A stretch of DNA of 64,000 nt from Gemmatimonadales bacterium (GTDB taxonomy: Bacteria; Gemmatimonadota; Gemmatimonadetes; Gemmatimonadales; GWC2-71-9). A program made the translations under genes and the position numbers. The notes beneath the pieces are model-generated. The model was not told where the DNA came from. It did no database searches and saw only the letters and a list, made by a program, of their open reading frames with translations. Within the stretch, counting starts at the first letter, position 1. Every line of letters begins with the position of its first letter. Positions 2,677-63,123 of this stretch are shown in pieces. The stretch spans positions 1,078-65,077 of the forward strand of contig JBBQXQ010000004.1 of NCBI GenBank assembly GCA_038209515.1. Direction: 5' to 3'.

Positions 2677-3570
2677 GTGACAATCAAGGCACGTAGCAAG
2701 CGTCGCCCGGTGCGACCGGCGCAGATCGCTCGTGCAATCGATGAGGGTCGCGAGAGTCTCGATCTGTACCTGGACGAGATCAGCCGGGTTCCCCTCCTCA
2801 ACCGTGAGGAGGAGATGGAACTCGCCCGTAAGGCGTTCAAGGGCAATGTGACGGCCCAGGAAAGGCTGGCTCGCCACAATGTGCGCTTTGTGGTCTCCGT
2901 GGCCAAGAAGTTCCAGAATCGTGGAGTACCCCTGGTGGACCTGATCGGCGAGGGGAACCTCGGCCTCATGACCGCGGCCCGCAAGTTCGATCCCGATCGC
3001 GGCGTCAAGTTCATTTCCTATGCAGTCTGGTGGATCCGGCAGGCGGTGCAGGCCGCTATCGCGCGGCATGGCCGTCCGGTCCGGGTACCGCTCAATCGTA
3101 CGGCGGATCTCAGCCGGCTTGGTCGGACCACGACCCTGCTGAAGGATCGGCTGGGCCGGATGCCAACCACCGAGGAGCTGGCCCGGGCAACCGGACTGAC
3201 CGTCGAGGCGGTGCGTTCCCTCAGCGCCCTCAATTCCGAGGCGGTTCGGCTCGACCATCCCACCAGGGACGGCGAAGGCAACGAGCGGATCGAACGCTTC
3301 ACCAGCGGCGAGCAGGAAAGCACCGACATGACGACCATGGCCAACAGCCAGACGCGGGATATCGAGGCGGCCCTCGCCGCCCTCCCGCCGCGGGACGCTA
3401 AGGTGCTTCGGCTCTACTTTGGGCTGGACGACGGCAACAGCCGCACGCTCGAGGAAATCGGCCGCATGATGGGGGTTACCCGTGAGCGGATCCGTCAGCT
3501 GCGGGACCGCGCCCTCCTCCGCCTGCGCGAAGGCGAGACCGGAGACCGGCTGAAGGATCTGGTGGCCTAA
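2677..3570 (+). CDS. RNA polymerase sigma factor, sigma-70 family (RpoD/SigA-like, regions 1.2-4, no long region 1.1)
   Basis: Region 2 (NVRFVVSVAKKFQNRGVPLVDLIGEGNLGLMTAARKFDPDRGVKFISYAVWWIRQAV), region 3 and region 4 (TLEEIGRMMGVTRERIRQLRDRAL) are all present. The ORF is open from GTG 2629. I prefer GTG 2677 because it is preceded by GGAG 8 nt upstream. Confidence 0.9.
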   Translation: MTIKARSKRRPVRPAQIARAIDEGRESLDLYLDEISRVPLLNREEEMELARKAFKGNVTAQERLARHNVRFVVSVAKKFQNRGVPLVDLIGEGNLGLMTAARKFDPDRGVKFISYAVWWIRQAVQAAIARHGRPVRVPLNRTADLSRLGRTTTLLKDRLGRMPTTEELARATGLTVEAVRSLSALNSEAVRLDHPTRDGEGNERIERFTSGEQESTDMTTMANSQTRDIEAALAALPPRDAKVLRLYFGLDDGNSRTLEEIGRMMGVTRERIRQLRDRALLRLREGETGDRLKDLVA

Positions 3571-3573
3571 GAA

Positions 3574-3695
3574 GCTATTGGCCATTAGCTATTAGCTACG
3601 CCGATGCGCTAGAGACCCTCCGATGCTCGGGGGGTTTCTTGTTAGAGCCAATAGCCAACAGCTAATAGCTAATAGCTAATAGCTAATAGCTAATA
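3574..3695. repeat. inverted arrays of AT-rich heptamers (GCTATTA x3-4 at 3574-3601; GCTAATA x7, 5 perfect, at 3647-3695) bracketing a terminator hairpin
   Basis: Direct reading. The left array is the reverse complement of the right array. It starts 3 nt after the sigma-factor stop and ends 14 nt before the next ATG. Confidence 0.9.
3615..3643 (+). terminator. rho-independent terminator after the sigma-factor gene
   Basis: 9-bp stem ACCCTCCGA / TCGGGGGGT (one G-U pair), 3-nt loop, then TTCTTGTT. Confidence 0.6.
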
Positions 3696-3709
3696 GCCGA
3701 TCGCCTCAA

Positions 3710-5263: not shown

Positions 5264-8008
5264 GTGCGTCGCGGATTGCTCTCCATTGGTCCCGCGTTCC
5301 TCCTGTTGTGCGTCCTTTCGACATCACCGCTCCTGGGGCAGCTCGAGCCACCGTCCACGGGCGGAGCGGTCGCGCTCGACCAGGAGCTTCGAATGCTGGG
5401 GCACTACAAGCGGGTTCTGATGATCGGCGCCCACCCCGACGACGAGGATACGGAGCTGCTGACGATCCTCGTCCGCGGCCTGGGCACGGAAGCGGCCTAT
5501 CTCTCACTCAACCGGGGCGAGGGTGGACAGAATCTCATCGGCCCCGAGCTGGGTGAAGCGCTCGGGCTGATCCGTACTGAAGAGCTGCTTGCCGCGCGCC
5601 GACTCGACGGCGCGCGGCAGTATTTCACCCGGGCATACGATTTCGGTTATTCCAAGACTCTCGATGAGACGTGGCAGCACTGGCCACGGGATACCATCCT
5701 CAAGGACGTCGTCAGGATCGTCCGCAGGTTCCGACCTCAGATCATTGTTTCGATCTTCAGTGGAACGCCCCGTGATGGCCACGGCCAGCATCAGGCGGCG
5801 GGCTGGTCGGCCCAGGAGGCGTTCCGCGCGGCGGGAGACTCCACCCGGTTTCGTGAGCTGTTCCGGGAAGAGGGACTCCTTCCCTGGAGTCCCCTCAAAC
5901 TGTATCGGAGCACCCGATTCGACAGCGCCGCCACCACGCTGACCTTGAACGGTGGGGTGCTCGATCCGGCTGTCGGCAAGTCGTTCCATCAGATCGCCAT
6001 GGCCGGGCGGAGCCTGCACCGATCCCAGGACATGGGTCAGCTGCAGCGGATCGGCCCCTCCAACGTACGACTGGCCTTGGTGGAAGACCGGACGGCTGGG
6101 GGAGGCGATGCCAAAGGCGGGCTGTTCTCGGGGGTCGATACCAGCATGGCGGCCATTCCACTGGGTGAGCGGCGTGTGGGTGGGTCGGCCACGCTCGTAC
6201 TCGCCGGAAACCCGACGACCGGTTTGGCCAGCTACCAAGCCCGGGTCGATTCGGTCATGGCCGCGCGTGGGAACCTGTCGCGCCAGCGCAGCCTGCTCGC
6301 GCGTGCCGCGTCCGACCTCGGGCGGGCAGTGGCGGAGCCACCTCGAGCGGGCGCGGGAGGCGGAGGGGCCTACTACACTCGCGGCATCGAGTTGGAGGAC
6401 CAGCTCGGGCATCTCAACGCGGCGGCCTGGCATCTGGGCCGGGTCGTGTTTGATGCCGTCATAGAGGACGACCGGGTCGTAGCAGGACAGAGGCTTCGCT
6501 GGACGCTGTCGACCTGGAACGCCTCGGATGAGCCACGCCTGGCAGACATGCGGGCAGCGGAGTGCATTCCTTTCGGCGAGTGTCAGGGGCCGGAGCCGGA
6601 TTCCGTGCCGCTGACCGTCCAACCGGGGCAGGTCGGGACGGTCGCTGCCGAGTATCAGGTTCTCGAGCAGCCGCCCTCCACTCCCTATTTCCTCCGCTTG
6701 CCTCGAGATGGGGATCTCTATCGCTGGCCGGACCAGCACCGATTGAGTCTCACCGGCGGCCCGCCCTACGGTGAGCCGTTCGAGCCTCCCACCTTCCTGG
6801 GATCGGTCGAGGTGAATGCCGGACAAGGGGACAGCCTGGGCGCCTCACAGATGACAGAGGCGGTGTTTCGATTCAACGATCAGGCGCGGGGAGAGGTGCG
6901 CCGGCCGGTCACCGTGGTCCCGCGCATCGATGTTAAGCTCGATCCGGCCACCGAGGTGTGGCCGACCGGCTCGCTCACGCCGCATCGCTTCACCGTCACG
7001 CTCACCCACGGCGCCAGGGACTCGACCTCCGGCACCGTGCGTCTGCAACTCCGTCGCGGCTGGCCAGCGGTAGCGTCGCAGCACTTCCGCTTCGCCCGGG
7101 AGGACGAGCGCGAAAGCTTCATCTTCGAGGTAAGACCGCCCGCTCGCCTCGCGCCCGACAGCGGCGAAATTCGCGCCGTGGCGCAGGACCTGGAGGGCAC
7201 TACGTACGACGTAGGCATGTATACCGTCGACTACCCTCACATCAGGCCCCGCTCCTACACCAGGCTCGCGACGACCACACTCCGGGTTGCCCCTCTGATC
7301 CTGCCTCGACTCACCCGCGTCGGCTACATTCGCGGCGCTGCCGACCAGGTGCCCGAGGCACTCGCCAGCGTGGGAGTTCCCGTCACGCTGCTCGGCGGAG
7401 CGGCGCTCGAGCGCGGGAGGCTCGATCGGTACGATGCCATCGTGGTCGGGCCGCGGGCGTACGAGACGGATTCGGCACTGGTGGAGAACAACCGGCGCCT
7501 TCTCGACTACGCCCGTCGAGGCGGTCTCCTCATCGTGCAGTATCAGCAGCACCAATTTTTCAGCGGCCGGTTTGCTCCCTATCCCATGACGGTCGGTGGG
7601 CAGCCGTTGCGCCTGGAGGAGCCGGCGCCGGGCCGGCCGGGGTCCGCGCCCGCGCGGGCTGCTCCGCCGGTGAGCCACGATCGGGTCACCGACGAAAACG
7701 CGCCGGTCAGGCTGGTCGCACCCGATCATCCGGCGGTGCGTGCCCCCAACCGGCTGAGCGCAGCGGACTGGAAGGGTTGGGTCCAGGAGCGTGGACTCTA
7801 CTTCGCCCGAACCTGGGACCGCCGGTACCGGCCGGTTCTGGAGACCCACGACCCCGGCGACGCGCCGCTTCTCGGCGGACTTCTGGTCGCGCCGGTCGGG
7901 AAGGGAACCTACGTCTACACCGGCCTGAGCTTCTTTCGGCAGTTGCCTGCGGGGGTGCCGGGCGCATTTCGGCTGTTCACGAATCTGTTGGCGCTTGGGA
8001 AGAAATGA
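5264..8008 (+). CDS. PIG-L/LmbE family deacetylase fused to a large C-terminal region (ThuA/class-I amidotransferase-like end)
   Basis: GTG start with a signal peptide. LmbE motif MIGAHPDDEDTELL...LNRGEGGQN. C-terminal segment YDAIVVGPRAYE...GGLLIVQYQQ. Confidence 0.75.
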   Translation: MRRGLLSIGPAFLLLCVLSTSPLLGQLEPPSTGGAVALDQELRMLGHYKRVLMIGAHPDDEDTELLTILVRGLGTEAAYLSLNRGEGGQNLIGPELGEALGLIRTEELLAARRLDGARQYFTRAYDFGYSKTLDETWQHWPRDTILKDVVRIVRRFRPQIIVSIFSGTPRDGHGQHQAAGWSAQEAFRAAGDSTRFRELFREEGLLPWSPLKLYRSTRFDSAATTLTLNGGVLDPAVGKSFHQIAMAGRSLHRSQDMGQLQRIGPSNVRLALVEDRTAGGGDAKGGLFSGVDTSMAAIPLGERRVGGSATLVLAGNPTTGLASYQARVDSVMAARGNLSRQRSLLARAASDLGRAVAEPPRAGAGGGGAYYTRGIELEDQLGHLNAAAWHLGRVVFDAVIEDDRVVAGQRLRWTLSTWNASDEPRLADMRAAECIPFGECQGPEPDSVPLTVQPGQVGTVAAEYQVLEQPPSTPYFLRLPRDGDLYRWPDQHRLSLTGGPPYGEPFEPPTFLGSVEVNAGQGDSLGASQMTEAVFRFNDQARGEVRRPVTVVPRIDVKLDPATEVWPTGSLTPHRFTVTLTHGARDSTSGTVRLQLRRGWPAVASQHFRFAREDERESFIFEVRPPARLAPDSGEIRAVAQDLEGTTYDVGMYTVDYPHIRPRSYTRLATTTLRVAPLILPRLTRVGYIRGAADQVPEALASVGVPVTLLGGAALERGRLDRYDAIVVGPRAYETDSALVENNRRLLDYARRGGLLIVQYQQHQFFSGRFAPYPMTVGGQPLRLEEPAPGRPGSAPARAAPPVSHDRVTDENAPVRLVAPDHPAVRAPNRLSAADWKGWVQERGLYFARTWDRRYRPVLETHDPGDAPLLGGLLVAPVGKGTYVYTGLSFFRQLPAGVPGAFRLFTNLLALGKK

Positions 8009-9045
8009 CGGTCTTCTCCGCCTTCTCCGTCTTTTCAGCCCTCTCCGCCTTCTCCGCCCTTTCCGCCTGTCGAGGCGACGCACGTACCCCCGTCGTCCTC
8101 TATTCACCCCACGGTCGGGACCAGTTGGCCCTGCTGGAGCACGCGTTCGAGGCCCGACGGCCGGACATCGATGTGCGCTGGCTGGATATGGGCTCGCAGG
8201 AGATCCTCGACCGTTTGCGTTTCGAGCGGGTCAATCCGCAGGCCGATGTCTGGTTCGGCGGGCCGGCCTCGATCTTCGATCGCGGGATCCAGGACTCGCT
8301 GCTGGTGCCCTACCGTCCGGTGTGGGCCGGCAACGTGGAGCGCCGAGGAGCCGGCCCCCGGGATCTCTACTATCCGGTCTACCGGACGCCGGCGGTGATC
8401 GCCTTCAACAGCCGGGCGGTGCCTCGCCGGGACGCGCCCCAGGACTGGGACGACGTGCTGGAGCCCCGCTGGAAAGACAAGGTCATCATCCGGGATCCCA
8501 TGGCTAGCGGAACGATGCGTGCCATCTGGGGGCTCATCCTGCTGCGCAGCCTGCGTCAGACCGGAGACACGGCCCAAGGCATGGCCTGGCTTCGGCGGTT
8601 GGATGGCCAAACCAAGACCTATACCATCAGCCCTGCGCTGTTGTACGAGAAGCTTGCTCGCCAGGAGGGGCTGATAAGCCTCTGGGATCTTCAGGACATC
8701 CTGATCACCCAGGCCAAGGGCATGCCGCTGGGCTACGTCTTTCCCCGGAGCGGCACCGTGGTCATCGACGATGGCATCGGGCTGGTGCGCGGTAGCCGGC
8801 ACCCTGAGGCCGCCCGCGCATTTATCGACTTCGTCGGCAGCGAGGAAGCGCAGCTGCTCGCCGCTCGGCGGGTATTCCGGCTCCCGGCTCGGACCGACCT
8901 TCCGGCCGATTCGGTGCCGTCATGGGTGGCCGACGTCGAGCGTGACATGGTCGTCGCCGACGTGGATTGGGGTCTATTCTCCAAACAGGGGCCGGCGTGG
9001 ATGAGCTACTGGGATCAGCATGTGCGTGGGACAGGGAAGCGGTGA
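8005..9045 (+). CDS. ABC transporter substrate-binding lipoprotein (Fe3+/thiamine-type, FbpA/AfuA-like)
   Basis: The ATG overlaps the upstream stop (ATGA). Lipoprotein signal MTVFSAFSVFSALSAFSALSAC. Body VVLYSPHG...DVWFGGP...VIDDGIGLV. The long 6958 ORF in the track is an out-of-gene upstream extension. Confidence 0.85.
   Translation: MTVFSAFSVFSALSAFSALSACRGDARTPVVLYSPHGRDQLALLEHAFEARRPDIDVRWLDMGSQEILDRLRFERVNPQADVWFGGPASIFDRGIQDSLLVPYRPVWAGNVERRGAGPRDLYYPVYRTPAVIAFNSRAVPRRDAPQDWDDVLEPRWKDKVIIRDPMASGTMRAIWGLILLRSLRQTGDTAQGMAWLRRLDGQTKTYTISPALLYEKLARQEGLISLWDLQDILITQAKGMPLGYVFPRSGTVVIDDGIGLVRGSRHPEAARAFIDFVGSEEAQLLAARRVFRLPARTDLPADSVPSWVADVERDMVVADVDWGLFSKQGPAWMSYWDQHVRGTGKR
8011..8064. repeat. 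6 x 9-bp tandem array (GCCTTCTCC-type) encoding the signal-peptide h-region
   Basis: Units are gtcttctcc, gccttctcc, gtcttttca, gccctctcc, gccttctcc, gccctttcc. This is the reverse complement of the GGCGGAGAA array at 57395-57439. Confidence 0.9.
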
Positions 9046-25213: not shown

Positions 25214-25218
25214 TCTCA

Positions 25219-25355
25219 GCGGGGAAGCGGGGAAGCGGGGAAGCGGGGAAGGAACGCTAAGCCTGGAGACAGACCGGATAAAGGGGTAGCAAGCGTGGCG
25301 GTCACGTACCCACCGACGCATCCTTCCCCGCTTCCCCGCTTCCTGGCTTCCCCGC
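25219..25355. repeat. inverted pair of (GCGGGGAA)4 arrays separated by ~70 bp, filling the queE-HD intergenic region
   Basis: 25219-25250 is 4 perfect 8-mers. 25324-25355 is ttccccgc, ttccccgc, ttcctggc, ttccccgc. The right end abuts the queE stop codon and the left end is 6 nt from the HD start codon. Confidence 0.95.
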
Positions 25356-25991
25356 TTACGGAATCCCGAGAAGCTTATGCGTCTGCAGGCTGAGCCGCCA
25401 GCGCGGGTGGGCCAGGCAGTATTGAAGGGCGGCCGAGGTGTTGGCCTCGCGGTCGGGTCCATCCATCGGCTGGAGGAAGTAGTGGCGGAACCCGAGCCGC
25501 TCGAACTGGTCCGGTGCCGTCCCGGCCTGCGGGAAAACCAGCTTGATCTCATCGCCACGGGTGACAACCAGCTCGGCCCCGGCCTTGGGGCTCACGCAGA
25601 GCCAATCGATGCCATTCGGGGCCGGCAGGGTCCCGTTGGTCTCGACCGCGATCTCGAAGCCTTCGCCGTGCAGGGCCTGGACCAGCTCCGAGTCCAACTG
25701 GAGGAGCGGCTCACCGCCGGTACAGACCACGAAGCGACGGCCAGACTCGGCCGGCGGCCAAGCGGCGGCTACCGCGGCCGCGAGCTCCCCGGCCGAGGCG
25801 AACCGTCCCCCACCGGGACCATCCGTGCCGACAAAATCGGTATCACAAAACTGGCAGGTGGCCTGGTGGCGGTCCTGCTCTCGCCCGCTCCACAGGTTGC
25901 AGCCGGCAAAGCGGCAGAACACCGCGGCCCGCCCAGTGTTGGCCCCTTCGCCCTGGAGGGTGTAGAAGATCTCTTTGACGGAATACGTCAT
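25356..25991 (-). CDS. queE: 7-carboxy-7-deazaguanine synthase (radical SAM)
   Basis: EIFYTLQGEGANTGRAAVFCRFAGCNLWSG...C-x-FCDTDF. Confidence 0.92.
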   Translation of the reverse strand: MTYSVKEIFYTLQGEGANTGRAAVFCRFAGCNLWSGREQDRHQATCQFCDTDFVGTDGPGGGRFASAGELAAAVAAAWPPAESGRRFVVCTGGEPLLQLDSELVQALHGEGFEIAVETNGTLPAPNGIDWLCVSPKAGAELVVTRGDEIKLVFPQAGTAPDQFERLGFRHYFLQPMDGPDREANTSAALQYCLAHPRWRLSLQTHKLLGIP

Positions 25992-36877: not shown

Positions 36878-36945
36878 GCCGGACGGGCGGACAGGCGGAC
36901 AGTTGTTAAATTTTGTCATTCTGAGTGCAGCGAAGAATCCCTCAA
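36878..36945. repeat. (GCCGGACG GGCGGACA GGCGGACA) 8-mer array followed by a half REP-like element (GTCATTCTGAGTGCAGCGAAGAATCCCTC)
   Basis: Direct reading. Same 8-mer unit as 63049-63072. Lies in the divergent gltA / M28 peptidase intergenic region. Confidence 0.85.
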
Positions 36946-36947
36946 GA

Positions 36948-38525
36948 ATGAAGGCACCCTTGCTCATTCGACACTTCGCCGGCCTGCTGGTGCTCATTGC
37001 AGCCAATCCCGCTGCCGCCCAGTCCAGCGTCGATACTGCGGGTGCCGGGGCCCTGATCGATCAGGCCATGAATCACTCCGAGGTGATGCAGAATCTCCAG
37101 CACCTGAGCGATGTCATCGGGCCTCGTCTCTCCGGCTCACCGGCGATGCGACGCGCCAACGAGTGGACCGCGGAGCGGTTCAGATCCTACGGCCTTACGG
37201 CCGCCCTGGAGCCGTACACCTTCGGCGTCACCTGGGAGCGAGGGTCCACCACCGTCCGGCTCCTGGCCCCCTTTTCCCGCGAGATCACCGCCCACAGCTG
37301 GGCCTGGACCGACGGCACGGGAGGCAAGACCCTGAGCGGTCCCGTCGTCCTCACCGATCTCTCGACTCCGGAGAGCCTGGCGGTCTACCATACCAAGGTG
37401 AAAGGCGCCTGGGTGCTTCCCAGGGCTCCGTTCCCCACCTGGAATCCCGATGGTCCGCCGATGACCGCGGCCGACTCCGCCGACGTCCAGGCACAGATCA
37501 AGTTCCGGGGGAGCCCGTTCGCCGACACCTCTGCCGCGGCGGTGGCGGCTCGTCGCCAGTACCAGATCGATCTGTCCTATATCCTCCAGGCCGCCGGCGC
37601 GCTCGGCACCCTCATCGATGGCGCCAAGGACCATGGGCTCATGACGATGAGCGGCTCGCCGACTCGGGTGTCGCCGTTGCCCAGTGTGGTGATCTCGCAT
37701 GAGGACTACACCCTCCTTACCCGGCTTATCGGGGCGGGAGGGACACCCCGCCTCGTCGCCAGGATCGAAAACCGCATCGGCAAGACCCCGGTCCAGCAGT
37801 GGAACACGGTGGCCGAGCTCAAGGGGACCGAGCGGCCCGGCCAGGTCGTGATCCTCGGTGCCCACCTGGACAGTTGGGATCTCGGCACCGGTACCACCGA
37901 CAATGGCACCGGCTCGATGGTGGTGCTCGAGGCGGCCCGGGCCCTGGCGCAGTCCGGGCTCAAGCCGAAGCGCTCGATCCGCTTCATTCTGTTCAGTGGG
38001 GAGGAGCAGGGGTTGCTCGGCTCACGCGCCTACGCCGAGGCTCATGCCGGTAGCGCCGACAGCATCCAGGCCGTGCTGGTGCTGGACAATGGCACCGGGG
38101 CCATCACGGGCCAGGCACTACAGGGGCGGAAGGATTTGGAGGGTCTCTGGGAGCAGCTCCTGGAGCCGGTGGCGTCGCTCGGCGCCGACAGCGTGCGGGA
38201 CGCCAACAAGAGCGGCACCGACCATCTCTCGTTCCTACCCTATGGCGTGCCTGGGTTCAACTTCGATCAGATCTCCAGGGGATACAATCACACCCATCAC
38301 TCGCAGACCGATACGTACGACAAGGCTGTTGCGGGCGATCTTAAGCAGGCGGCGGCGGTCATGGCGGTCACGGCATATGAGCTGGCGAACCTGCCCGAGC
38401 TGTTGCCGCGTGGGACGAAGAGTCCGGTGATGCCGGTGCCGACGAAGCCGTCGCCCGGATTGGCGGTACGGCGGTACGGCGGTACGGCGGCGAGGCGGTA
38501 CGGCGGTGAGGCGGTACGGCGGTAG
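36948..38525 (+). CDS. M28 family metallopeptidase, exported
   Basis: ATG 36948 with a signal peptide. Motifs VILGAHLDSWDLGTGTTDNGTG, FSGEEQGLLGS, DHLSF. The last 21 codons and the stop are encoded by an 8-mer array. Confidence 0.85.
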   Translation: MKAPLLIRHFAGLLVLIAANPAAAQSSVDTAGAGALIDQAMNHSEVMQNLQHLSDVIGPRLSGSPAMRRANEWTAERFRSYGLTAALEPYTFGVTWERGSTTVRLLAPFSREITAHSWAWTDGTGGKTLSGPVVLTDLSTPESLAVYHTKVKGAWVLPRAPFPTWNPDGPPMTAADSADVQAQIKFRGSPFADTSAAAVAARRQYQIDLSYILQAAGALGTLIDGAKDHGLMTMSGSPTRVSPLPSVVISHEDYTLLTRLIGAGGTPRLVARIENRIGKTPVQQWNTVAELKGTERPGQVVILGAHLDSWDLGTGTTDNGTGSMVVLEAARALAQSGLKPKRSIRFILFSGEEQGLLGSRAYAEAHAGSADSIQAVLVLDNGTGAITGQALQGRKDLEGLWEQLLEPVASLGADSVRDANKSGTDHLSFLPYGVPGFNFDQISRGYNHTHHSQTDTYDKAVAGDLKQAAAVMAVTAYELANLPELLPRGTKSPVMPVPTKPSPGLAVRRYGGTAARRYGGEAVRR

Positions 38526-38565
38526 GAGTCATTGCGAGGGGGCAAAGCCCCCGAAGCAATCCAGC
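38462..38565. repeat. 8 x 8-bp tandem array (GGCGGTAC-type, 38462-38525) followed by a CATTGCGAGGGGGC...GCCCCCGAAGCAATC hairpin
   Basis: Units are ggcggtac x3, ggcggcga, ggcggtac, ggcggtga, ggcggtac, ggcggtag. The TAG of the last unit is the peptidase stop codon. Confidence 0.92.
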
Positions 38566-54174: not shown

Positions 54175-55878
54175 ATGACTGAAACCCTGACCGGCTCTCA
54201 AATCCTCTGCCGCGCGCTGCTGGAGCAGGGAGTCGACGTCCTGTTCGGGTATCCCGGCGGCGCGATCATGCCGTTCTATCACGCCTTGCCCGAGTATCCC
54301 GGCCTGCGCCACGTGCTGGTGCGGCACGAGCAGGCCGCCGCCCACGCAGCCGACGGGTACGCCAGGGCGAGCGGACGCGCCGGTGTGTGTGTCGCGACCT
54401 CGGGTCCCGGGGCGACGAACCTGGTCACTGGCCTTGCCACCGCCCATATGGACAACGCGCCCGTGGTTGCGATTACCGGACAAGTCGCTCGGGCCATGAT
54501 GGGCCGGGACGCGTTCCAGGAGACCGACATCATCGGGATTACCCAGCCGATCACCAAGCACAACCGGCTGGTGGAGGACGTCGAGGAGCTGGAGGACGCC
54601 GTGGCAGAGGCCTTCTACGTCGCACAGGAAGGCCGGCCGGGCCCGGTGCTGATCGATATTCCGAAGGACGTGCAGAATCAGAAGGCGGAGTGGAAAGGCG
54701 GTCAGGCGGTCAGGCGGTCAGGCGGTCACTTGGAATCGACCGACCGACCGCCCGTCCGCCCGCCGGGCCTCGAAGACGCCACTCGTCTGATCGCCGAGGC
54801 CCAGCGTCCCCTCATTATGGCGGGTCACGGTGTCCTGCTCTCGAATGCCTACGCCGAGCTTCGTGCTCTGGCCGAGCGCACCGGGATTCCGGTGATCACC
54901 ACGCTGCTTGGGATCAGCGGATTCCCGGAGTCGCATCCACTCCACCTGGGTATGCCGGGGATGCACGGCGAGGTCCACGTCAATCGCGCCATCCAGCAGG
55001 CCGATCTCATCATCGGACTCGGCCTCCGATTCGACGACCGGGTGACTGGCAACCTCGCGGGCTTCGCGCGCGGGGCCAAGGTCATTCACGTGGACCTCGA
55101 TCCGTCCGAAATCGGCAAGAATGTGCCAGTCGCAATCGGGATCGTGGGCGACGTGCGGGCGGTGTTATGCTCGCTGCTGGATATGGTAGCGCCGCGACAT
55201 TGCGACGCGTGGCGGGAGGAAATCGCCGGGTTCGTCCGGCCTCGGCAGGAGGCCTTTCGGGGAGGACTGACTCCAGAGACTATCCTCGATGCCATCGACG
55301 GGGCTACCTCGGGCCGCTGCTCCATCGTCTCGGATGTGGGCCAGCATCAGATGTGGGTCGCCAAGCTCTTTCGTTATCAGCGTCCCAACAGCCACATCAC
55401 CTCCGGCGGTCTCGGCACGATGGGGTTCGCCGTACCGGCCGCGATGGGCGTGGCCCTGGCACGGCCGGATGAACCGGTGTGGGCGATCTCGGGCGACGGC
55501 GGTTTTCAGATGAACATGCAGGAGATGGCGACGATGGTGCAGGAAGGGATCCCGGTGAAGATGGCGATCTTCAACAACGGATACCTTGGCATGGTGCGGC
55601 AGTGGCAGCAGTTCTTCCATGGTAAGCGCTACTCGGCGACCCCGATCTGGAGTCCCGACTATGTGCGGCTGGCTGAGGCCTATGGCATTGCCGGCTGGCG
55701 GGTGGAGTCGGCGGATCAGGCCCAATCCGTGGTCCGCGAGGCGACGGCCCAACCCGGTCCGGCCCTGGTGGAGTTCGTCATCGAGCAGGAGGCGAACGTC
55801 TACCCCATGATTCCGCCGGGTGGCTCTCTCTCGGAGCCGATCGAGGGCGAACCTGTGCCGCCACTGGTGCCCGCATGA
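54175..55878 (+). CDS. ilvB: acetolactate synthase large subunit (biosynthetic type)
   Basis: ThDP enzyme pattern (GYPGGAIMPFYHAL, GPGATNLVTG, GLGTMGFAVPAAMG, GDGGFQMN). Confidence 0.95.
   Translation: MTETLTGSQILCRALLEQGVDVLFGYPGGAIMPFYHALPEYPGLRHVLVRHEQAAAHAADGYARASGRAGVCVATSGPGATNLVTGLATAHMDNAPVVAITGQVARAMMGRDAFQETDIIGITQPITKHNRLVEDVEELEDAVAEAFYVAQEGRPGPVLIDIPKDVQNQKAEWKGGQAVRRSGGHLESTDRPPVRPPGLEDATRLIAEAQRPLIMAGHGVLLSNAYAELRALAERTGIPVITTLLGISGFPESHPLHLGMPGMHGEVHVNRAIQQADLIIGLGLRFDDRVTGNLAGFARGAKVIHVDLDPSEIGKNVPVAIGIVGDVRAVLCSLLDMVAPRHCDAWREEIAGFVRPRQEAFRGGLTPETILDAIDGATSGRCSIVSDVGQHQMWVAKLFRYQRPNSHITSGGLGTMGFAVPAAMGVALARPDEPVWAISGDGGFQMNMQEMATMVQEGIPVKMAIFNNGYLGMVRQWQQFFHGKRYSATPIWSPDYVRLAEAYGIAGWRVESADQAQSVVREATAQPGPALVEFVIEQEANVYPMIPPGGSLSEPIEGEPVPPLVPA
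54684..54764. repeat. inverted 8-mer arrays inside ilvB: (GGCGGTCA)4 at 54697-54728, 9-nt spacer, degenerate CGACCGCC-type array at 54738-54764
   Basis: Direct reading. Translated in frame as GGQAVRRSGGHLESTDRPPVRPPG, in the linker between the Pyr domain and the central domain. Confidence 0.9.
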
Positions 55879-56381
55879 CGGTGGCGCGCGCCGTGTCGGT
55901 GCTGCTGGAGGATCGTTGGATCACGCTGAACCGCGCGGTCGGGCTCATCCGGCGGCGCAACCTCCCGGTGCACAGTCTGGCCGTAGGGCCAACTGCCACG
56001 CCGGGACTCTCGAGGCTCACGATAATGATTCACTCGGACACAGCGACGGCCGACCGGGCCGTGCAGCATCTGCAGAAGGTGGTTGGCGTCCGTGCGGCGG
56101 TGGCATTTCCGGCCGGGGAAGGAGTGGTCCGTGAGCTCGCCCTGGTCAAGGTTCGTGCGCCGCACGAGCGATATGGTGAGCTGCTCGACGTGGTCCAGCT
56201 GTACAATGCTTCGGTGGTGGACGACTCCGCCGACGCGATGATCGTGGAGCTCAGCGGCTCCGAGGCCTTCGTGCTCTCGTGCATCCGGGCCCTCGAGCGC
56301 TTCGGCGTGGTCGAGGTGGCCCGCAGCGGCACGATCGCGCTGGGCTCAGGCAATGACATTCAATCCGGGACGTTACCATGA
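55875..56381 (+). CDS. ilvN: acetolactate synthase small (regulatory) subunit
   Basis: ACT-domain pattern ([32 protein letters not shown]). ATGA overlap. Confidence 0.88.
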
Positions 56382-57481
56382 CCACGCCAGTGCGGGTGTA
56401 CTACGATGCCGACGCCGACCAGAGCCGCCTGGACGGCCGCACCTTTGCCATCATCGGGTATGGCAGCCAGGGACACGCCCACGCCTTGAACCTCCGGGCA
56501 AGCGGAGCAGACGTCATCGTGGGACTGCGGCGCGGCGGAGGATCATGGGAACGTGCCCGTGCCGCGGGTCTCGACGTCCAGACGGTGGCCGAAGCAGCGG
56601 AGGCCGCCGACGTGATCATGATGCTGGTGCCGGACCAGGACGCCCGCGCCATCTATGAAGGCGGCGTCGTGCAGGGCCTTCGACCGGGCAAGACGCTGAT
56701 GTTCGCTCACGGGTTCAATGTGCACTATGGCGAGATCGTGCCACCCGATGGGGTCGATGTCTCGATGGTCGCGCCCAAGTCTCCCGGTCATCTGGTGCGG
56801 AGTGAGTTCGAAGCCGGCCGGGGGGTGCCTGGTCTGGTCGCCGTGCATCAGGACGCAAGCGGGGAAGCTTTGGCCAACGCACTGGCATACGCCGCCGGGA
56901 TCGGTTGCACCCGGGCCGGGGTCATCGAGACCTCCTTTCGGGAGGAAACAGAGACCGACCTGTTCGGCGAGCAAGCGGTGCTCTGCGGCGGCGTCACCGC
57001 ACTGGTCAAGGCCGGTTTCGAGACCCTCACCGCTGCGGGCTACCGGCCGGAGATGGCCTACTTCGAATGTCTCCACGAGCTCAAGCTCATCGTGGACCTC
57101 ATGTACCGGGGTGGCCTCCAGTTCATGCGCTACTCGATCAGCGATACGGCGGAGTACGGCGATTACACCCGCGGCCCCCGGGTGATTACAGAGGAAACGC
57201 GGGCGGAGATGCGCCGGATTCTCGATGCCATCCAGGACGGCTCCTTCGCCCAGGAGTGGCTGGCAGAGAACCGAGCCGGGCGGGCCAACTTCGACCGGCT
57301 TCGGAAGGCCGACCACGACCACGAGATCGAGCGGGTCGGGGCCGAGCTCCGGGCCATGATGCCGTGGTCCGAGGAAGGGAAGCGGGGTGGTAAGACGGAG
57401 AGGACGGAGAAGGCGGAGAAGCCGGAGAAGGCGGTGAAGTCGAAACGGCCTCACCGTCCCGCGCACCCGCTGCCTCGCTGA
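56378..57481 (+). CDS. ilvC: ketol-acid reductoisomerase (class I) with Lys/Glu-rich C-terminal tail
   Basis: [16 protein letters not shown] and the KARI C-domain. The tail [31 protein letters not shown] lies beyond the usual end. Confidence 0.95.
57395..57439. repeat. 5 x 9-bp tandem array (GCGGAGAAG-type) encoding [15 protein letters not shown]
   Basis: Units are acggagagg, acggagaag, gcggagaag, ccggagaag, gcggtgaag. Confidence 0.9.
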
Positions 57482-63040: not shown

Positions 63041-63123
63041 ACGGGGCGGGCGGACAGGCGGACAGGCGGACGGGCGAGTACTCCTCATCCCGTTCCTTCA
63101 GTACTGTCCGCCTGTCCGCCCGC
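63041..63123. repeat. inverted (GGCGGACA)n arrays around an AGTACT...AGTACT core, between the glnK stop and the ilvD start
   Basis: 63049-63072 is ggcggaca, ggcggaca, ggcggacg. 63105-63120 is tgtccgcc x2. Both arms also contain AGTACT. Confidence 0.9.

Follow-up and report, generated by a model that had tools for sequence, protein, structure and literature searches.

Introduction

Several kinds of short repeat DNA described in bacteria are close to the element reported here. Rickettsia palindromic elements (RPEs) and intragenic ERIC/BOX elements are palindromic repeat DNA lying in frame in protein genes (PMC10969869). G-rich heptamers, namely (GGGAATC)n in Xanthomonas and (GGGGA(C/T)T)n in Nostoc/Anabaena, form arrays with a mode of about four units; Xanthomonas genomes carry 70-75 convergent array pairs each, which are potential stem-loops, and the repeats of both groups lie between co-directional genes, often at most 50 bp from a stop codon or overlapping it, and are under-represented in open reading frames (ORFs) (PMC4692102). 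REP/BIME elements are short GC-rich intergenic palindromes in operons that can stabilise upstream mRNA (PMC3733652). Nothing specific was found in the literature on such repeats in Gemmatimonadetes, and the nearest precedents emerged when the search was widened. In this study, an inverted pair of 8-nt tandem arrays is described that is read in frame within ilvB, the gene encoding the large subunit of biosynthetic acetolactate synthase (acetohydroxyacid synthase, AHAS), of a Gemmatimonadales bacterium from soil. The whole stretch of DNA analysed, hereafter the window, comprises 64,000 nt of contig JBBQXQ010000004.1 (assembly GCA_038209515.1), and all positions follow its numbering. The segment is best explained as belonging to a class of inverted short tandem repeats that form hairpins and occur throughout the lineage, with units of 7-8 nt, about four units per arm and the G-rich arm first. 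It is probably a tolerated, near-neutral translated repeat, which would be maintained by a permissive site together with self-perpetuating repeat dynamics.

The ilvB element resembles the RPEs in being hairpin-capable, in occurring also between genes and in being translated in unrelated housekeeping proteins at sites that the fold can accommodate (PMC10969869, citing Ogata et al. 2000, 2002). In both systems, a paralogous copy is present in a second gene, which for the ilvB element is the tail of ilvC. However, RPEs are about 100-150 bp long, have a family consensus and a conserved peptide, and add length to the host protein, whereas the arms of the ilvB element are 7-8-nt tandem arrays with units varying by locus, and the linker in which they lie keeps the canonical length of about 40 residues found in most AHAS. 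Moreover, inspection of the alignment revealed no terminal inverted repeats or target-site duplications, and the ilvB element is resident and turning over at one site across the order.

The G-rich heptamer repeats of Xanthomonas and Nostoc, with which the cyanobacterial STRR were grouped as near analogues, share with the Gemmatimonadales arrays the number of units, the inverted pairing with the G-rich arm first and the position at gene ends. In contrast, the ilvB pair lies in the middle of the gene of a core enzyme and is translated, while the other copies in the window follow the gene-end rule. The Gemmatimonadales units also vary between loci, and 8-mers dominate the ilvB linker. REPs are likewise short GC-rich palindromes within operons, but they are single palindromes of 20-40 bp, which bear a conserved GTAG or CGTC tetranucleotide tag and are mobilised by an associated RAYT transposase, whereas the Gemmatimonadales arms are tandem arrays.

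Results

An inverted pair of octamer arrays is read in frame within ilvB

The features of the ilvB locus, all on the plus strand, are as follows.

54175..55878, +: ilvB, biosynthetic acetolactate synthase large subunit, 567 aa (ORF list, TIGR00118, Pfam and match in the Protein Data Bank, PDB)
54676..54804, +: hypervariable inter-domain linker, residues about 168-210, between DIPKDVQ and RPLIMAGHG
54697..54728, +: left G-rich arm, (GGCGGTCA)x4 (repeat finder TRF); all three frames used, peptide GGQAVRRSGG
54729..54737, +: spacer or loop CTTGGAATC (sequence); loop region of the predicted hairpin
54738..54762, +: right C-rich arm, degenerate GACCGNCC-type units (TRF and complementarity); peptide DRPPVRPP

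The four units of the left arm showed zero mismatches, and TRF reported the arm at 54696-54728 with a period of 8, 4.1 copies, 100% matches and a score of 66. Beyond the 9-nt spacer, the right arm follows as a degenerate array of reverse-complement units (GACCGACCGACCGCCCGTCCGCC, 54738-54760), which was reported by TRF at 54737-54762 as (CGACCGCC)x3.2 with 88% matches. The repeat search revealed that the arms are 83% complementary over 23 nt and 9-10 nt apart. By translation, the segment is read in frame as ...KGGQAVRRSGGHLESTDRPPVRPPGLED... within the ilvB ORF, and the peptide, GGQAVRRSGGHLESTDRPPVRPPG, is identical to that given in a first-pass annotation of the same DNA. The in-frame inverted 8-mer pair in ilvB described there was borne out by TRF, complementarity, translation and TIGR00118.

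Folding of the 96-nt region as RNA gave -48.7 kcal/mol with z = -2.4, and 3 of 200 shuffled sequences folded as well; as DNA, the z-score was -1.8. As regards a possible G-quadruplex in the G-rich arm, the GGCGGTCA unit offers GG tracts only, whereas AGCGGGGC units offer GGGG tracts. A search of the whole 64-kb window with a two-unit GGCGGTCA probe, allowing at most two mismatches, yielded six matches against 0.14 expected per window. Three of them were exact, overlapping matches at the ilvB site, and the rest lay in GGCGGACA arrays at 36886 and 63049/63105. The Rfam gathering search of the whole window gave zero matches. A scan around the ilvB repeat for terminators and promoters found neither, and the hairpin was thus rejected as an intrinsic terminator or internal promoter.

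The arrays occupy the linker before the central domain

The window ORF scored 689.9 bits with TIGR00118, for which the equivalog cut-off is 538.35. The Pfam domains of IlvB are ordered as PF02776 (TPP_enzyme_N, residues 6-121), PF00205 (TPP_enzyme_M, 200-331) and PF02775 (TPP_enzyme_C, 387-534). The best PDB match was a plant AHAS (E = 9e-147), and the protein could be aligned over its whole length with AHAS structures from plants, yeast and E. coli. The repeats correspond to residues 175-196 and the central domain TPP_enzyme_M begins at residue 200, so that the AHAS structure alignment and Pfam agree with the first-pass placing of the segment in the linker before the central domain.

The linker is 43 residues long in the window and 41 in Arabidopsis AHAS, the query stretch NQKAEWKGGQAVRRSGGHLESTDRPPVRPPGLEDATRLIAEAQ being paired with the Arabidopsis linker with two one-residue gaps. 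As the length is nearly canonical, the repeat replaces the canonical linker and adds no length; the earlier suggestion that the linker was built from or replaced by a repeat therefore holds as replacement, but not as insertion. Linkers in 63 diverse AHAS representatives, being those in which both linker anchors were found, ranged from 35 to 68 residues, mostly about 40, and were generally variable, with typical lengths of about 36-48 aa. An L.GY-type motif was present in 17 of the 63. The LPGY.P-type motif that had been noted as missing is indeed absent in the window and in all 161 Gemmatimonadales orthologues compared below.

An AlphaFold2 model was obtained from 50 close homologues, a shallow alignment with members at least 83% identical, and its mean predicted local distance difference test score (pLDDT) was 73; of this model, use was made only of the low confidence in the linker and of its coil assignment. 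Residues 176-195 had pLDDT below 50 and no secondary structure. The linker segment is thus predicted to be a disordered loop between the domains.

Array-built linkers occur across Gemmatimonadales

The linker was compared in 161 loci, comprising 80 species-representative genome loci, 80 metagenome loci and the window; the identity of the loci to the query was 71-95%. The TRF survey covered 944 kb, the count of linker arrays 147 loci and the whole-gene fold scan 78 loci. The proteins nearest to the window IlvB were named Gemmatimonadales bacterium. The 120 best homologues (82-95% identical) had nearly invariant flanks, DIPKDVQ and RPLIMAGHG, separated by 37-53 unalignable residues. Across the 161 orthologues, the linker was unalignable and 12-65 aa long between flanks 71-96% identical, and the peptide could not be aligned even among orthologues 85-90% identical. 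The segment is not ordinary conserved AHAS sequence, the alternative named in the first-pass annotation.

In all 161 loci the linker was in frame and free of stop codons, so the reading frame is preserved as had been stated for the window. By a rough estimate, only about one in ten unrelated GC-rich segments of linker size would be both in frame and stop-free. The intact frame of all loci thus provides strong, if indirect, evidence for translation of the segment, and reading-frame integrity is its one clear constraint.

The peptides of the orthologues matched translated repeat units according to our own translations of the 120-homologue alignment: a 10-residue peptide corresponds to (GGCGGACA)n, GSGEAGKRGG to (AGCGGGGA)n, GGKAVRRYG to (GGCGGTAA/C)n and STAVPPYRRTA to (GTACCGCC)n. 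Unit types of the linker were also present between genes or at gene ends in the window, with GGCGGACA at 63049, GGCGGTAC at 38462 and AGCGGGGA at 25218. Inverted short-tandem-repeat hairpins thus lie between genes in the same genome, and the view that the linker is built from the intergenic kind of repeat is upheld.

At least one array with a period of 7, 8, 10 or 11 was detected by TRF in 58 of the 147 linkers, whereas the rest of ilvB (about 1.55 kb, same loci) contained only 12 arrays, all weak. Pairing by TRF and script gave 71 inverted array pairs in the 944 kb, 59 with the G-rich arm first. The ilvB linker held 27 of these pairs, which were clear ones, all with the G-rich arm first and 24 of them made of 8-mers. 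The other 44 were mostly heptamers in spacers before ilvB and at the ilvC-leuC junction. The median copies per arm were 4.0 and 3.9 for the linker pairs and 4.2 and 4.1 for the others. Arms were decayed or absent in many orthologues, and L002 and L006 carry differing units in their arms.

Some linkers were of other kinds. Locus L034 (JAICLE010000016.1) has a linker of 12 residues, TQKLEYAAGRAE, which lacks both the variable part and the helix usually preceding RPLIMAGHG; either the region was lost naturally, which would show that it can be dispensed with, or the assembly collapsed at the hairpin. In a distant clade (L066, L068, L072, L075, L132, L140-L147 and others), the linker contains a different palindrome, CCCCG.GC...GGGGTCAGTCACTGACCCC...G.GCC.GGGG, which is read as RGQSLTPGASPG and diverges at only about one third of the four-fold-site rate with no codon-position bias. 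Some array-free clades keep a linker peptide, for example GRREGL.GRPTPTAL.

The linker cassette is inherited, remodelled and replaced

The closest relatives of the window, L081, L082 and L042 (94-96% identical), have the same 43-residue linker with the same copy number, in spite of about 24% divergence at four-fold sites. The window cassette has been inherited vertically, with slow decay among these relatives. In them, units 2 and 3 read AGTCGGTC or AATCGGTC and unit 4 reads AGCCGGTC, whereas the window has four identical AGGCGGTC units. The more distant L001, which we read as an outgroup from the clustering, carries AGTCGGTC as well. The three sites at which the window differs from its relatives are, in order, a first, a third and a second codon position, and each difference alters the encoded residue. 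Since the relatives and in part L001 hold variant units, the four identical units of the window look derived, and homogenisation by conversion or slippage would account for them rather than three parallel point mutations.

In L028 and L080, a variant unit was present at the mirrored position in both arms, which suggests copying from arm to arm. Replacement on a larger scale was seen between L002 (about 3500-3600) and L083 (about 640-740), whose DNA is about 99% identical for at least 150 nt on each side of unrelated cassettes of about 95 nt. The cassette boundaries are sharp, lying immediately after AATCAG and immediately before GAAGAAGCC. The difference represents either a cassette polymorphism within a population or a very recent replacement. 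Similarly, the linkers of L123, L126 and L116 are all unrelated to one another, although the flank protein of these loci differs by only 2-3%. Inspection of the alignments found no duplicated flank at the cassette boundaries of L002/L083 or L123/L126/L116.

The array is thus inherited in relatives 94-96% identical, and array-built linkers are found across the order, so that the feature is not peculiar to the genome of the window. The check on copy-number variation that had been proposed gave an identical copy number in the window and its three closest relatives.

The class-B linker is paralogous to the ilvC tail

The ORF list places ilvB in the row leuA-ilvB-ilvN-ilvC-leuC. The leuA-ilvB gap in the window is 3 nt, and no array pair lies upstream of ilvB there. 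A 168-aa ORF at 55875-56381 overlaps the ilvB stop and is taken, from its position and size alone, to be a putative ilvN; it is followed at 56378-57481 by ilvC, the ketol-acid reductoisomerase (KARI) gene, the end of which contains a further element.

57368..57481, +: IlvC C-terminal tail (residues 331-367), decayed (AGCGGGGC)n...(GCCCCGCY)n hairpin copy (end of KARI_C, sequence, and alignment with the L011 and L027 tails)

The KARI_C domain ends at residue 330 of the 367 in IlvC. In the clade of the window, the extension past this domain is a translated inverted-array hairpin ending in ...RRPA.PLPR*. The window tail contains an in-frame 9-mer repeat, (AAGACGGAG)x5 at 57392-57439, which is translated into a K/E-rich tail. 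IlvC-tail elements were also observed in L011 (6240-6343), L027 (6225-6344) and L126 (4472-4547).

A widespread form of the ilvB linker, designated class B, consists of (CAGCGGGG)n followed by GGCAGCAAGAGCACACC, a loop and (GCCCCGCY)n. It aligned end to end with the IlvC-tail element 2.6 kb downstream, including the junction GGCAGCAAGAGCACACC, with local alignment scores of 66-95, whereas shuffled sequences reached at most 34. Only at the class-B linker and the IlvC tail did the junction motif turn up. In L126, the linker heptamers (GGGGCTC, GGGGTTC, GGGATTC, GGGGCTC) matched its own ilvC-tail array unit for unit. This paralogy and the L126 match indicate that copying between the ilvB linker and the ilvC tail has happened. 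As to homology within a dispersed family, the class-B linker is thus homologous to the IlvC tail over its full length, and the GGCGGTCA cassette of the window is single-copy in 64 kb.

Other arrays lie between genes and at gene ends

The remaining arrays of the window are listed below, with strand given where one applies.

38462..38524, +: array (GGCGGTAC)x8, encoding the C-terminal approximately 21 residues (LAVRRYGGTAARRYGGEAVRR*) of an M28 peptidase, well past the end of its Peptidase_M28 domain (TRF, translation)
25218..25357, no strand: intergenic inverted pair (AGCGGGGA)x4, 71-nt spacer, (CTTCCCCG)x4 (TRF, sequence)
63049..63120, no strand: intergenic inverted pair (GGCGGACA)x3.5, spacer, (CTGTCCGC)x2 (TRF, sequence, pattern search)
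3573..3697, no strand: intergenic inverted heptamer pair (AGCTATT)x3.7, 47-nt spacer, (AGCTAAT)x7.4 (TRF, sequence, script pairing)

The pair at 25218..25357 is upstream of the likely Met start of a minus-strand gene. The pair at 3573-3697 lies between two plus-strand genes and is AT-rich in a genome of about 65% G+C, with the same architecture as the G-rich pairs. Directly after the GGCGGTAC array is a palindromic motif, GTCATTGCGAGGGGGCAAAGCCCCCGAAGCAATC (38528-38561), and a similar motif, GTCATTCTGAGTGCAGCGAAGAATCC, follows a short GGCGGACA array (36880-36940) upstream of the same M28 peptidase gene. An array and the GTCATT...AATC motif may together make up a composite element. In addition, a nonamer array, (CTTCTCCGC)x6 at 8013-8068, which TRF also reported with a 27-nt period, is located just past the stop of a 914-aa ORF (5264-8008).

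In other genomes, an inverted heptamer or octamer pair was very frequent about 50-150 nt upstream of ilvB where a spacer exists (L005, L022, L023, L024, L030, L040, L055, L069 and L086). The unit of the upstream pair in L040, GGCGGACC, equals a unit in its own ilvB linker.

The linker evolves with nearly uniform rates at the three codon positions

Rates were calculated as changes per site by codon position for 22 close pairs that were phylogenetically independent and whose linkers had the same length. The flanks showed 0.023, 0.014 and 0.177 at codon positions 1, 2 and 3, respectively, and the linker core 0.173, 0.159 and 0.200. With three non-homologous pairs of the same length removed, the remaining 19 pairs gave 0.106, 0.100 and 0.151 for the linker core, and the third-position rate of the flanks was 0.151, equal to that of the linker, with about 0.02 at flank positions 1 and 2. 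The ratio of the rate at positions 1 and 2 to that at the third position was about 0.7 in the linker against about 0.1 in the flanks. Judged from these comparisons, the evolution of the linker appears to be nearly neutral. A first comparison (linker 0.124, four-fold sites 0.220) had pointed to constraint at the DNA level, but it depended on the choice of pairs, and with independent pairs the third-position rates were equal; such constraint on the linker seems to be weak.

Discussion

The evidence taken together favours a near-neutral translated hairpin repeat at a permissive site. The element would have arisen in, or been copied into, the linker in an ancestor within Gemmatimonadales, and it would have replaced the canonical linker at roughly constant length. 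Its persistence would be possible because the linker accepts almost any stop-free, in-frame peptide that is Gly/Arg-rich and then Pro/Arg-rich. Remodelling would proceed by homogenisation within an arm through slippage or conversion, by copying from arm to arm, and by occasional replacement of the whole cassette, including from the paralogous ilvC-tail element. Because the 8-nt unit is read in all three frames, selection would act mainly as a filter for the frame and the absence of stop codons. A separate function for the hairpin or the peptide is not indicated.

Some observations weigh against this explanation. No second copy of the GGCGGTCA unit that might have served as a donor was found by pattern search in the 64-kb window. 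A hairpin recurs at one site across the order, which could also mean selection for structure, and in 36 of the 78 loci scanned no 90-nt stretch of the gene was more stable than that with the linker hairpin. In some clades, such as L066, L142 and L145, linker DNA diverges at only one third of the four-fold-site rate with no codon-position bias, which hints at some DNA-level constraint or conversion. Finally, slippage, template switching and ectopic conversion are mechanisms inferred from patterns and not observed.

The inverted-array hairpins of Gemmatimonadales could also be actively copying elements, beyond products of local slippage, that overwrite one another as cassettes of about 100 nt, with the ilvB linker and the ilvC tail as preferred landing or conversion sites; in addition, the hairpin or its G-rich arm might act at the RNA level in the leu/ilv operon. 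This reading we consider rather unlikely. The repeat invasion proposed in the first-pass annotation gains support to the extent that copying was shown for the class-B linker and the IlvC tail, but the cassette of the window has no donor in 64 kb.

Somewhat less probable is that a nucleic-acid structure is under selection and the peptide is its by-product. Such a structure might cause mRNA pausing between the domains, affect processing or stabilisation of the leu/ilv transcript, or influence transcription as a DNA hairpin or G-quadruplex. The strong hairpin at the same place despite entirely different units would be accounted for, as would its rank as the most stable 90-nt window so much more often than the approximately 10% expected by window share. 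The constant order of the arms in the 27 linker pairs, with about four units per arm, points the same way, given that the four-unit bias was tied to G-quadruplex formation in Xanthomonas and Nostoc (PMC4692102). Paired stem positions also diverged somewhat less than unpaired ones (0.157 and 0.215, respectively). However, mismatches in the best stems of 78 loci comprised 25 G:U, 51 A:C and 121 other, which is the opposite of the expectation for a selected sense-strand RNA helix, and selection for such a helix as the main force was therefore rejected. The equal third-position rates in linker and flanks, the many orthologues with decayed, missing or unequal arms, the lack of any terminator, promoter or Rfam match at the site and a fold z-score of only -2.4 in the window likewise speak against selected structure.

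Exaptation at the protein level, by which the Gly/Arg- and then Pro/Arg-rich peptide would have been recruited for a function as a flexible or charged linker, such as contacts with the regulatory subunit, is less probable again. It would fit the slightly slower change at codon positions 1 and 2 than at position 3, the frame kept in all loci and the linker peptide conserved in some array-free clades. In contrast, the peptide is too variable in sequence and length to be aligned among close orthologues, the segment is predicted to be disordered, and all three differences between the window and its relatives change the amino acid. Furthermore, selection on protein sequence could not give rise to an octamer period that runs through three frames and is accompanied by a reverse-complement arm. 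The exaptation claimed at first is thus unsupported, in view of the near-uniform rates at the codon positions and the low pLDDT.

Phase-variable genes typically contain repeat units whose length is not divisible by 3, and the perfect four-copy octamer within a coding region resembles a contingency locus in which 8-nt slippage would toggle ilvB by frameshift. This is very improbable and phase variation was rejected, as the linker is free of frameshifts in all 161 loci. In addition, the window and its three closest relatives share copy number and linker length despite their divergence, imperfect units in the relatives suppress slippage, and the host gene serves housekeeping biosynthesis rather than encoding a surface or restriction protein. 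An assembly or sequencing artefact can practically be dismissed: short-read assemblers can mis-assemble tandem repeats, and the L034 linker is possibly such a collapse, but the same array with small differences is present in four independent assemblies, and analogous arrays with the frame always intact occur in more than 50 independent metagenome-assembled genomes, including contigs of 0.7-3.7 Mb.

In summary, the original observation is confirmed and its interpretation is supported in part, in that the ilvB segment is an inherited, order-wide, nearly neutral feature and not a recent insertion. No new biochemical mechanism is revealed. The variable linker calls for caution in annotation and in alignment-based IlvB phylogeny in Gemmatimonadales. 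If active copying were true, a core enzyme would carry a rapidly exchangeable translated cassette. The locus provides a natural example of hairpin-forming non-coding repeat DNA that has long been carried and translated in a central enzyme of amino-acid biosynthesis, and it indicates that the inter-domain linker of AHAS is almost free of sequence constraint and that reading an octamer array in each of the three frames can be harmless. Since homogenisation, mirrored arm copying and cassette replacement can be traced against a highly conserved scaffold, the ilvB linker is a handy marker for the origin and movement of the poorly known repeats of Gemmatimonadales.

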